Assembly (NCBI GenBank): GCA_038740145.1
Contig: JAVYMB010000001.1
Coordinates: 1-29,680 of the forward strand
Direction: 5' to 3'
Length of the DNA: 29,680 nt
Source of the DNA: Candidatus Norongarragalinales archaeon
GTDB lineage: Archaea; Micrarchaeota; Micrarchaeia; Norongarragalinales; Norongarragalinaceae
Part shown: piece by piece, positions 12,080-15,513 of the stretch
Position numbering within the stretch: the first letter of the stretch is position 1
Layout: each line of letters starts with the position of its first letter
The notes under the pieces: model-generated
The model's input: only the letters and a program-made list of their open reading frames with translations
Database searches by the model: none
Told to the model about the DNA's origin: nothing
Translations under genes and position numbers: made by a program

Positions 12080-13054
12080 TCAACCCAACTTTTTCACAAA
12101 TGCAGCGAGTCGTTGTTTTTCGCTTTCATCGACTTTACAGACAACCACGCCGCGCCTGGGTTGTCCGTAAGCAACTACGCTGTGCAACGGCGCGAACAAC
12201 ACAGCGGGAATGAATGCGTAGTCTTCTTCGCCTATCACGCGCACGAAAACTTTGCCGCCTCGCCGCAACGCTCGCTCGATACTGCGCGCCAACGAGCGCG
12301 TTATCGTACCTCGAGGGTTGCGGCAAACGATTTCGCGTCCCCGCACTCGCTCGATTCCAAGCACGGGATCGCCACGGCGAGTTTTTTCGTCGAAAACCAA
12401 CACGTCGGCATCTAGGTGGTCGAGAGTGCGCGCAACCACGTCGCCAACGAGGATTATCTTCGTTGGTTTGTAAAGCCGAATCGCTCGCCCCGCGCGCTTA
12501 GCGTCAGGGTAAAGGGTTCCAAAGGGGCGCTTCGCGAAAGCGCGGAGCGCTGGCGTTGCTTTAAGCGTGCGCTTGAACAACGAGCGATACAAAAAACCGC
12601 GTCTGTCTTCTTCCCCGCCGCGCATTCGCGTGCTTGAAATGTGCTTGCGGTCTTCGCTTAAAACGAGTGGGCACAAAACAATTTTTAGGGGGCGGAGTCC
12701 GCGCCGCCGTCGAGCGCGGTTGATAAGGCGCGCGCCAGCAACGGTTTCGCTAGTGCAGACTATTGCTTGGTAGCCGTCTTGCAGCGTTGGACCACAAACA
12801 TCGTGGAGTTCGTAGATTCGCGCTCGCTTGAGCCAACCTTTTTTCTTTAAAAAATTTTTAAGCGCGGCTTTGCGTTCAACGAAAGACTGCACTATTCGCG
12901 CGTAATTTTTTTTGCGCGTCATTTGCTGGACAGTTAAACCGATGAGGACGCGCTCGCCAACCGCGAAGGCTTTCGCTAACAATGCTTCGTGTCCTTTATG
13001 TAGCCTGTCGAAAGTGCCGCCAGTCGCGACTAATCGAAACTTTTTCATACTCAT
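12080..13054 (-). CDS. coaD: Fusion: archaeal phosphopantetheine adenylyltransferase (PPAT) + GTP-dependent dephospho-CoA kinase (DUF359)
   Basis: N-domain [11 protein letters not shown] (HxGH), GLT, ISST. C-domain VGD, DEKTRR, NPRGTI, VIGEED, YGQP.RG. Start at ATG 13054 or 13048; the track's extension to 13174 is low-complexity promoter DNA. Confidence 0.88.
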
Positions 13055-13057
13055 TGG

Positions 13058-13181
13058 TTTAATGCGGCGAGTCGGTTTAAATGTTTTTGAACGCCTTCTT
13101 CTCAGCTTTTTAAACCGCGTTTTAAAACACTGCGGTCGGCGTTTAAGAGCTCTTTTTAAAGCGGTTTTAAACACGTCTTTA
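13058..13181. repeat. Cluster of roughly helically phased TTTAA(A) tracts with an imperfect inverted repeat
   Basis: TTTAAA at 13076, 13109, 13121, 13155, 13166; TTTAA at 13058, 13142. TTTAAACCGC (13109) versus GCGGTTTTAAA (13161); palindrome AAGAGCTCTT at 13145-13154. Confidence 0.55.
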
Positions 13182-13203
13182 GTGGAAGCGAAGCAAGCGT
13201 TGG

Positions 13204-13211
13204 TTTATAAA
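13204..13211 (+). promoter_or_regulatory. TATA box upstream of the small ORF at 13277
   Basis: TTTATAAA preceded by purine-rich GAAGCGAAGCAAG; expected TSS near 13233. Confidence 0.55.
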
Positions 13212-13276
13212 CCCTTTACACCAAACTTTTAGCCTTGCTCCCAGTGCAAGCGGGATGCGAGGGAGGTGCCGTTAGC

Positions 13277-13327
13277 ATGGCATTCTCCGGAATAATGCCC
13301 GCCGACTTGTTCGACGAGCTCGACTGA
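13277..13327 (+). CDS. Candidate 16-aa small protein MAFSGIMPADLFDELD
   Basis: GGAGGTG at 13262-13268, 8 nt before ATG; TATA box upstream; T6 tract at 13341-13346 downstream. Confidence 0.45.
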   Translation: MAFSGIMPADLFDELD

Positions 13328-13521
13328 ACCGCGCGTCCAGTTTTTTCAACGAAACGCGCTTTTGGGTCGAATCACCGCCTTATGAAAGCAAGCGGAAAAA
13401 CTTGACTGCCGCGCGCCTCGCGCACCACTAGTTTTTACTTTTTTTCGCTCGAATTCTTTTTATTCTCACTTTTCTTTAAAGATACGCAGAAAATATTCGA
13501 GGCTTTCGGGAGGTAACGCGC

Positions 13522-14019
13522 ATGGGTTTTGTTTCAATGACTATATGGGTTTTCTTAATGCTTTTAGCAGTCGGCATTTACACTAGCTTGCTTGCGTTGC
13601 TTAAGCCTAAAGAAAAGCAGTATTATGGAATGCTTAAACTCGGAGTCTTCCTAGCGGTTTTCGACTTCTTTTTCGAGAGTTGGGGCGCCGCCGCAGGTTA
13701 TTGGGTGAGCAAGGGCTCGCTGTTGCCCCTAAACTTTTTCAGCGTTCCAGGCTTTGAAGGAGTGCCTTTCGAAGTCTTTGTGATAGCCTTGTGCGCTGGC
13801 GCTACTTACGCGTTGTTGTTCCCGAAAAAATTTGATTGGCGCATCGCGCTTCCAACAAACTTTCTCATCGCATGCATCGGAGCCGGCATAGAGTCGCTTC
13901 TGATTTCTTCTGGCAACCTCGTTTACAAAGGTGGTTGGACTAGCGTGCACGCTCTTCTCGCCTACTTCGCCGTCTTCCTACTTTTAAACTGGGTTAATGC
14001 GAAGTATTGCGGTGACTAA
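13522..14019 (+). CDS. Hypothetical multi-pass membrane protein
   Basis: About 5 hydrophobic segments with an internally repeated E-x6-G-x-[WL]-x pattern (FESWGAAAGYWV; IESLLISSGNLVY) and VPFEV, loosely like lycopene-cyclase-type TM domains. Family not certain. Confidence 0.75.
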   Translation: MGFVSMTIWVFLMLLAVGIYTSLLALLKPKEKQYYGMLKLGVFLAVFDFFFESWGAAAGYWVSKGSLLPLNFFSVPGFEGVPFEVFVIALCAGATYALLFPKKFDWRIALPTNFLIACIGAGIESLLISSGNLVYKGGWTSVHALLAYFAVFLLLNWVNAKYCGD

Positions 14020-14052: not shown

Positions 14053-15513
14053 GTGCGCCGCTTAGTAGTTTGTTTCTTCGCGTTCGCTTCTCTTGCTTCA
14101 ATGCTCGCTAGCGCAGCGACTCCGCTTTCTCAGTGCAGCTCGCTTTCAAGCGGCGACTACGTGCTCGTGCAAGACGTTTATGCCGCGCCACCTGGGACCG
14201 ACTGCTTCGTCGCAAGCAGTGCTGGCGTCTCCTTGGATTGCGCTGGCTTTCGCGTCGTCGGCTCGCAAGGCGGCGTCGGATTCAAAAACCCTGGTTTCGC
14301 AAACGTCGCCTTACGCGGCTGTACAATTCAAAACTTTAGCGTCGGCGTGAGTTTCGAGGGAAGCACAGCGTTTTCAGGCGGAAGCATTGCCTCCAACGCG
14401 GTTTCAGGGACTTCAACTTCATTAAAAATAATTAACGCTCGCTCGCTATCGGTTTCGCAAAACTCTTTTTCTGGAGTAGTGCAAGCGTCGTCTTCAAGTG
14501 AATTGGTTTTTTCTTCAAACACTCTCAACGCCGTAGAACCCGGCGCCCTCAAACTTGAGGGGGTCACTTCGTCGATTTTCTCGAGCAACGCCGTATCAAG
14601 CGGCGGCGAGTACGCGCTGTGGGCGACTGCTTCATCAAGCAACTCTTTTCAAGGCGGGAGTTTCGCCGGTGCCACTACTGATGCTTTGCTTGACTCGTCG
14701 CCGCCGAATAGTTTTACCGAAACCAATTTTTTTCACGGCAGCGTCGCCTTCGCTGGCTCGAGCGACGGCGCAGTGTTTAAAGATTGCGCTCTTGACGCTG
14801 CTCGCTTGCGCTGGCTTTCAGGTGCCGCGCGCGTCACCGTGAAAAACAGCGCTCGAGTGCGAACGCTTGACGCAAACGGCGTTGCAGTGGAAGGCGCGAG
14901 CGTAAACGCTACCGCAGCAGACGGCGCCTCGCTTTTTTTTGGTTGGACGAACGCTGCAGGGTTGACTGACTGGTTTGAAGTAATCGTTTTTCAAGGCAGC
15001 GAAAGCGATGGCTCAACTCAATCGTCTTACCTAGTGCGCGCAAGCAAGAATGGCTTTTCATCCAGCGCTACCGAGCACTCGTCGCCCAAGAAAGAGACGA
15101 CGCTTTACCTCGGCGCCTCGCCTTCGCCGATTCCAAGCGCTTCTGCTTCGCCAGCAGCTTCCCCAAGCGCTTCAATCGCGGCGTCGCTTTCGCCGACTTC
15201 GCGCGCTTCGCCTTTCGCGTACCCCTGGCTTTCGGGAGCGAGCGTTTCGCCGGCGGTGGTTGACGCGAGCGCGGCGGCTTCGCCGGTTGTGAGTGAGGCG
15301 TTGCTTTCAGTGCGGGGGGTTGGCGTCGGCGAGGCTGCTGCCGAGCTTGGCGCTGAAATTCCAGATTACGCTCGCACCTCGCCTAGCCCTGCTCTTTCGT
15401 GCGTTTGGTGTGGAGTCGCGAGTGCCGCGCCGTGGTGGGCTTGGGTTGGCGGCGCATTCGCGGTAATCGCCTTGTTTTTGCTGGCGCGGCGGCGAAGACA
15501 AAGTTTAACTTGA
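14053..15513 (+). CDS. Cell-surface parallel beta-helix (NosD/pectin-lyase-like) protein with Ser/Pro linker and C-terminal anchor
   Basis: Signal peptide; C..L.SG.YVL..D...C.....VSLDCAG beta-helix cap; repeating I..N..S strands; Ig/transthyretin-like DANGVAVEGASV...TNAAG segment; SPSP-rich linker; TM + RRRR. GTG start. Confidence 0.8.
   Translation: MRRLVVCFFAFASLASMLASAATPLSQCSSLSSGDYVLVQDVYAAPPGTDCFVASSAGVSLDCAGFRVVGSQGGVGFKNPGFANVALRGCTIQNFSVGVSFEGSTAFSGGSIASNAVSGTSTSLKIINARSLSVSQNSFSGVVQASSSSELVFSSNTLNAVEPGALKLEGVTSSIFSSNAVSSGGEYALWATASSSNSFQGGSFAGATTDALLDSSPPNSFTETNFFHGSVAFAGSSDGAVFKDCALDAARLRWLSGAARVTVKNSARVRTLDANGVAVEGASVNATAADGASLFFGWTNAAGLTDWFEVIVFQGSESDGSTQSSYLVRASKNGFSSSATEHSSPKKETTLYLGASPSPIPSASASPAASPSASIAASLSPTSRASPFAYPWLSGASVSPAVVDASAAASPVVSEALLSVRGVGVGEAAAELGAEIPDYARTSPSPALSCVWCGVASAAPWWAWVGGAFAVIALFLLARRRRQSLT

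Follow-up and report, generated by a model that had tools for sequence, protein, structure and literature searches.

The stand-alone 16-codon open reading frame at the centre of this report is, on comparative grounds, a real, conserved and unannotated locus of the window, by which we mean the whole stretch of 29,680 nucleotides that was analysed, taken from a Candidatus Micrarchaeota MAG of 756 kb and 80% completeness. The reading that we favour, and to which we would give about an even chance, is that of an independently transcribed small RNA with a dual function, acting both as a message and as a functional RNA. The last ten codons of the frame are frozen at the DNA or RNA level, and for this reason the transcript probably works in both capacities. 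The features to which an earlier note had drawn attention are all present in the sequence, namely TTTATAAA at 13204, the inverted repeat CTTGC/GCAAG, GGAGGTG at 13262, an ATG at 13277 opening the frame for MAFSGIMPADLFDELD, and a T6 tract at 13341. Within a single sequence such features are not clearly beyond chance, and it is because of its conservation that we take the locus as real. Gene callers miss open reading frames this short. The coordinates of the locus and of its surroundings are collected in Table 1.

Table 1 Features of the microORF 1 locus and its immediate neighbourhood (positions refer to the window)
Feature	Position	Strand	Remarks
Conserved block, consensus TTTACCGGAAGCGAGGCGGGATTCGG	13165..13203		Directly 5' of the TATA box; invariant alignment columns
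Archaeal TATA box TTTATAAA (13204-13211), putative	within 13202..13213	+	Perfect 12-nt palindrome GGTTTATAAACC
Initiation region CCAAACT..TAGCCT	13222..13235	+	Invariant columns; predicted transcription start near 13231
5' hairpin H1	13234..13261	+	C-rich arm / G-rich arm; RNAalifold consensus, in all five species
Shine-Dalgarno sequence GGAGGTG	13262..13268	+	Complementary to 16S 3' end CACCUCC; 8 nt before ATG
Helix H2	13262..13288	+	Shine-Dalgarno sequence with codons 3-4 (UUCUCC), AUG with CGU; predicted in all five species
MicroORF 1	13277..13327	+	16 codons + stop TGA, peptide MAFSGIMPADLFDELD; 15 codons in G004
MicroORF 1 product	13277..13327	+	Predicted; (M)AFSGIMPADLFDELD form, allowing for Met removal / N-acetylation
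32-nt block	13294..13325	+	Identical in 5/5 species; one A, codons 7-16, first base (T) of stop
Hairpin H3	13320..13370	+	Basal helix UCGACU (13320-25) / GGGUCGA (13365-70), in the MFE structure of 5/5 species
Mini-ORF 2	13382..13405	+	MKASGKT in G000; no Shine-Dalgarno sequence; frame conserved, peptide not
GC hairpin CGCGCG-N3-CGCGC	13410..13423	+	Followed by T5 (13432-36) and T7 (13439-45)
165-aa membrane protein gene	13522..14019	+	Downstream neighbour in 4/5 species; own Shine-Dalgarno sequence GGAGGT and TATA-like boxes

The conservation in relatives on which the earlier note had made its proposals depend was found, in that both the peptide frame and a block at the RNA level are kept in five species of one genus. 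An order-wide search of 68 genomes with degenerate codon patterns for the peptide tail recovered the element in all five species of this Micrarchaeota genus (G000 to G004) and in none of the 63 other genomes. BLAST of the intergenic region against 40 relatives returned nothing outside the genus, only its four other species, with identities of 75-83% across approximately 13141-13349, and the same four relatives gave the only matches when some 185,000 species representatives were searched. A metagenome scan yielded one real contig match, whose element does not differ from the G003 one over the stretch read, while the remaining six of its seven matches were due to chance. When a covariance model of 13230-13331 was run over the order, the genus scored 94-127 bits and the next best match 26.6 bits; the weak matches inspected sit inside long open reading frames. 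A 30-mer match in G027 and a DLFDELD match in G036, both inside long genes, were likewise set aside as chance, as was one internal DLFDELDK match in the order search. The element is single-copy, and what looked like a second copy in G002 was the overlapping end of a neighbouring contig. In all five species conservation of the intergenic block exceeds that of the coding genes on either side, in which third codon positions reach only 48-68% identity, with the qualification that the five carriers amount to about four independent lineages and the statistics are thin.

The region upstream of microORF 1 has the layout of a putative archaeal promoter. The sequence GGTTTATAA is invariant in all five species, and the position of the TATA box about 27 nt before a conserved TAGCCT suggests that it serves this role. 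The usual archaeal distance from TATA box to start is the basis on which we place the predicted start of transcription. Because the box is palindromic and has no clear BRE on its left side, the direction of the promoter is given here as a presumption, and activity of the box in both directions is conceivable, as in each of the four genomes for which data exist the upstream neighbour is a minus-strand gene. Conservation also covers the 40 nt left of the palindrome; the consensus of this block is followed in four species and has diverged in G000, and the block is a candidate regulator site or BRE region.

The GGAGGTG in front of microORF 1 is the sole 7-mer of its kind in the window, where 0.89 would be expected by chance. 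It had been called the window's best Shine-Dalgarno (SD) sequence, a description that holds narrowly, given the GGAGGT of the membrane protein gene downstream. SD sequences are in real use in the source genome, where nine of the 30 occurrences of GGAGGTG sit 4-10 nt before long open reading frames and the 16S rRNA ends in CACCUCC (contig C6). The motif reads GGAGGTG in every species but G003, which has GGGGGTG and in which pairing with the anti-SD through G-U would still be possible, and its spacing of 8 nt from the start codon in most species is 1 base shorter in G003 and 1 base longer in G004. The ATG is invariant in all five species. It opens peptides that read MAFSGI-, MAFSGQ-, MAFSEQ-, MAFSQQ- and MAFSQ-, each followed by MPADLFDELD. 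Codons 2-4 carry three substitutions, each of them confined to the wobble position (GCA/GCC, TCC/TCT/TCG). Variation is free in codons 5-6 and absent from codons 7-16. The reading frame is kept through a 3-nt in-frame deletion in G004, and the stop falls at the same codon throughout, as TGA in three species and as TAG in two. The earlier suggestion of a regulated microprotein gains support from this comparison, in which SD, ATG, frame and stop position have all outlasted an indel and a TGA/TAG swap, and microORF 1 probably encodes an acidic peptide of 15-16 residues. In helix H2 the wobble sites that vary in codons 2-4 are either unpaired or terminal, and RNA structure could therefore explain the pattern as well as selection on the peptide; the tail, being free of substitutions, carries no synonymous/non-synonymous information.

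The predicted peptide would consist of a conserved MAFS head, a variable linker of 1-2 residues and the invariant MPADLFDELD tail. Drawn as a helix, the tail would place L11, F12 and L15 on one face between Asp and Glu residues, in the pattern of a short docking motif. Hydrophobic residues on one face between acidic ones are typical of docking motifs, and a docking role for the tail is what we would suggest. The C-terminal tails of the ribosomal stalk proteins, ...GLxxLFG in archaeal aP1 and ...GFGLFD in eukaryotic P1/P2, offer no more than a lead, in that they too have an acidic stretch whose very C-terminal end is an amphipathic motif containing Leu-Phe. The aP1 of the source genome, however, ends in ...AEGLAALFG and the microprotein in ...PADLFDELD, with only LF shared. 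No other PADLFDELD-like peptide and no near-copy of the 32-nt block was found in the genome, and comparison of the 30-aa TTG-extended frame with PDB and Pfam gave no match. The idea that the tail is a mimic or fragment of another protein was rejected, as the genome holds no similar peptide and aP1 ends differently. With 16 residues, the product would be about as short as functional peptides are known to be.

Over the tail codons, comparison with two control genes indicates that the 32-nt block is under nucleotide-level constraint beyond the needs of the peptide. All nine degenerate codons among codons 8-16 are identical in the five species, in a run of nine codons and 32 nt that terminates at the first base of the microORF 1 stop. 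Both controls were drawn from the same five genomes. In the membrane protein gene 27 of the 103 amino-acid-invariant degenerate codons are identical in all five, with a longest run of three; for EF-1alpha the corresponding count is 112 of 346, with a longest run of five codons and a longest invariant run of 16 nt in 1305. At the per-codon rates of the neighbouring gene (0.26) and of EF-1alpha (0.32), nine consecutive identical codons have a probability of approximately 5e-6 to 3.5e-5. Codon bias was rejected as the cause of this invariance because the block spells Pro and Ala with CCC and GCC, the least frequent of their codons in the genome (shares of 13% and 16%); the GAG in it is the minor Glu codon. 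The block holds CGAC three times with an exact period of 9 nt (13303, 13312 and 13321), a perfect 8-nt palindrome, CGAGCTCG, and the near-palindrome GACGAGCTCGAC, a 12-mer of which 10 of 12 positions are palindromic. A k-mer scan of the genome, which is 80% complete, found no complementary stretch of at least 14 nt elsewhere, and the three complementary 13-mers that it contains are none of them at gene starts.

Folded as a single sequence, the 118-nt stretch 13230-13347 is no more stable than its shuffles (z of -0.53 on the + strand and -1.59 on the - strand), and the structures described here were examined across the five species. The CTTGC/GCAAG hairpin (13234-38/13246-50), which had been proposed for the 5' end, is not conserved, with 68% of cells paired and 254 of 500 shuffles as good. 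It is replaced as the 5' hairpin by H1, in which 85.7% of cells are paired versus 77% in shuffles (5 of 500 as high) and 37-57% in slid controls. The covariation score of H1 was 0.35 versus 0.22 (13 of 500 shuffles), with two pairs changed on both sides in an alignment of only five sequences, which suggests some modest covariation; its predicted dG ranges from -7.7 to -15.9 kcal/mol among the species.

Helix H2 would sequester both the SD and the start codon. In the alignment 94% of its cells are paired, and eight of its 11 pairs never vary. Partition-function folding put the probability that the SD is paired at 0.82-0.99 in all five species, the local dG being -11 to -13 kcal/mol. The alternative helix GGCAUU/AAUGCC reaches 93% of cells paired. 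Of the switchable hairpin that the earlier note had described, the ability of both helices to form and the predicted pairing of the SD were upheld, but covariation was found in neither, as H2 has no compensatory change and no pair of the alternative is changed on both sides; the GCA to GCC change breaks one pair in each of them. Folding models thus leave a switch between H2 and the AAUGCC helix possible.

The last codons of microORF 1 pair with the invariant GGGUCGA, and the basal helix of H3 consequently encloses the stop codon in the predicted fold. Being invariant, this basal helix yields no covariation. Its distal stem carries the T6 tract (13341-46) and has a predicted stability of -18 to -25 kcal/mol in G000, G003 and G004; in G001 and G002 the stem is deleted. 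The tract, which had been singled out behind the microORF, is therefore missing in two of the five species and, lying inside H3, is not a conserved terminator. The invariant 32-nt block, H1 with its modest covariation and the conserved helix around the stop together speak for the other suggestion made previously, that of an unannotated non-coding RNA. The search of Rfam that had been recommended for it returned nothing: with Rfam 15 no covariance model reached its gathering score anywhere in the window, and at E up to 10, over 13000-13560, none matched the microORF or its conserved 3' blocks. No tRNA was found by ARAGORN.

Conservation extends into a 3' region of about 100 nt, which includes a GGTCGAA block. 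In mini-ORF 2 the sequences TATGAA and CTTGA are invariant and in frame in all five species, the frame comprising 7, 7, 10, 11 and 10 codons, and it is kept through length changes of 9-12 nt; the significance of this conservation is uncertain, the probability of its arising by chance being roughly 0.04-0.1. The stop of mini-ORF 2 always lies 4 nt before the GC hairpin, such that translation might control formation of the hairpin, whose arms are invariant and whose loop varies (CCT, CTT, TTC). The hairpin together with the T-runs is the probable 3' end of the transcript.

A plausible mode of action can be outlined for the dual-function RNA. Transcription would start about 27 nt past the conserved TATA box, near 13231, and the 5' end of the transcript would fold into the conserved hairpin of 13234-13261. 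The SD and AUG would be taken up in a helix with codons 3-4, such that initiation of translation is probably held low or made conditional. Codons 7-16 would most likely also offer the RNA a surface for pairing or for protein binding, and the 3' part, with mini-ORF 2 and the GC hairpin, would complete a transcript of roughly 110-215 nt. A more specific version, in which the 32-nt block is dual-coded for the MPADLFDELD docking tail and for an RNA pairing or protein-binding surface, with H2 deciding which activity is expressed, is possible, and we put it forward tentatively. If correct, the DPANN archaea would have their first dual-function RNA, and the product would be among the shortest functional stand-alone peptides known in archaea. 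No archaeal genomes are smaller or less understood than those of the DPANN group.

Several of these observations could also be brought together without a peptide. In a purely non-coding structured small RNA, GGAGGUG would be one strand of H2, the AUG and the stop would be incidental and the 32 nt would form a functional single-stranded or protein-binding stretch. Such an RNA would account for a block that is invariant at wobble positions and spelled in rare codons, for the conservation of H1, H3 and the 3' blocks, for the pairing predicted for the SD in all species, and for the coincidence of the variable positions in codons 2-4 with unpaired or terminal positions of H2. We nevertheless think it unlikely, faced with a perfect 7-nt SD at ideal spacing before an invariant ATG, a frame kept over a 3-nt indel, a stop held at the same codon despite a change in its sequence and an invariant block that ends exactly at that stop; Rfam offered no match, and no target complementarity was found. 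The coding signs of microORF 1 could conversely be taken at face value, with the locus a plain microprotein mRNA devoid of RNA function and the 32 nt either a DNA-level site (for a regulator on the 12-mer near-palindrome) or an outcome of sampling few genomes. The perfect 8-nt palindrome and the 12-mer with 10 of 12 positions palindromic within the block fit the former and the mere four or so independent lineages the latter. This account is quite unlikely in our estimation: the invariance covers 32 nt and reaches beyond the palindrome, EF-1alpha from the same five genomes never rises above 16 nt, and the block is flanked by conserved RNA helices in which its 3' end takes part.

The earlier note had further considered a cis-acting leader peptide or attenuator controlling the membrane protein gene at 13522, which lies on the same strand and is adjacent in four of the five species. 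Two short open reading frames and a GC hairpin before T-runs, with the mini-ORF 2 stop 4 nt from the hairpin, are in keeping with such an arrangement. The proposal was rejected, and we regard it as very improbable, because G004 retains the whole element despite 3.5 kb between microORF and membrane gene (occupied by a convergent 768-aa gene and an Lrp-like gene), because the membrane gene has a TATA-like box and SD of its own, and because no microORF-like ORF was found upstream of its homologues in nine other genera. In G004 the 3' blocks and the GC hairpin likewise stay beside the microORF and not beside the membrane gene. The T-runs start 8-32 nt past the hairpin and double as the TATA of the next gene, no terminator-like site was scored, and the peptide has no run of regulatory codons. 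That the locus might be non-functional, either an intergenic remnant that evolves slowly or an ORF arisen by chance, was already disfavoured and is in our view scarcely credible; its single-sequence statistics are indeed unremarkable, but the block is better conserved in the five species than the coding genes that flank it. A recent transfer of the segment among the five genomes is argued against by the diverged flanks inside the element.

By analogy, the locus probably belongs to a known kind, the small-protein-encoding and probably dual-function sRNA. Spot 42 of Escherichia coli is a dual-function sRNA that encodes the 15-aa protein SpfP, and its coding sequence overlaps the pairing region (PMC12612679). 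The element described here would resemble it as a small independent transcript with a 15-16-codon ORF laid over a nucleotide-constrained region, in which structure competes with translation. Spot 42 is, however, bacterial and Hfq-dependent, with known targets and a known partner (CRP), whereas the present locus is archaeal, has no sequence relationship to it and has a transcript that is predicted. Within the archaea, sRNA154 of Methanosarcina mazei has a 20-aa ORF conserved within the genus and was proposed to be dual-function (PMC11456600). With this and other spRNAs the locus would share the character of an archaeal intergenic small transcript bearing a tiny ORF conserved only within a genus. 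The ORF of sRNA154 is leaderless and its RNA targets are known, whereas microORF 1 is SD-led and occurs in a DPANN archaeon; the two show no homology. The bacterial attenuator leader peptides encoded by trpL, pheL and hisL have 14-16 codons. MicroORF 1 is similar to these in length, in its position upstream of a same-strand gene and in having hairpins nearby, but differs in that it contains neither runs of regulatory codons nor a terminator/antiterminator pair, that the downstream gene is separable from it (G004) and has its own promoter-like box, and that its peptide sequence is conserved, as is usually not the case for leader peptides.

Micrarchaeota are small symbiotic archaea, and where genomes measure about 1 Mb or less, a genus-specific gene that has been kept intact is likely to be of importance to its bearer. 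The dual constraint on codons and on nucleic acid would make the locus a clean natural case of coding and RNA functions sharing one sequence. Metatranscriptomic and peptidomic work on Micrarchaeota co-cultures also gains a concrete target from it, with a 51-nt ORF, a 32-nt block and a defined peptide to look for, its reach being limited by a narrow distribution in one genus of uncultured archaea.

The length of the conserved stretch, about 280 nt, also brought SRP RNA and RNase P RNA into consideration as identities for the element; both were rejected, since the genus has them at other loci. The archaeal SRP RNA model of Rfam itself had no match in the whole genomes of G000, G001 and G002 and scored below threshold in G003:C6:23356-23623 and G004:C14:510-776 (80-83 bits versus a cut-off of 96.5), meaning that the SRP RNA of the genus is either divergent or often unassembled. 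A C/D-box sRNA was rejected because the CUGA at the stop is lost in G003 and G004.

The downstream 165-aa membrane protein belongs to no Pfam family, and its weak match to the CBO0543 family lies below the cut-off. On the upstream side the gene at 12080-13051 (-) fuses phosphopantetheine adenylyltransferase (PPAT) with a GTP-dependent dephospho-CoA kinase (DUF359), the enzymes of the last two steps of CoA synthesis. This fusion is the upstream neighbour in G000 and G002, and other genes take its place in G001 and G003, all of them on the minus strand. Two G002 contigs (C7/C51) overlap by about 190 nt exactly at the element, and on the upstream side contig C68 of G004 stops about 70 nt short of the predicted start. 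Such assembly breaks at or near the element, together with the differing upstream synteny, may point either to a hot spot of rearrangement or to a sequence that is difficult to assemble. Beyond the membrane protein gene, positions 14053-15513 (+) encode a probable surface protein of 486 aa, in which a signal-like N-terminus is combined with a NosD/right-handed beta-helix domain, a stalk rich in Ser, Pro and Ala, and a membrane anchor at the C-terminus.
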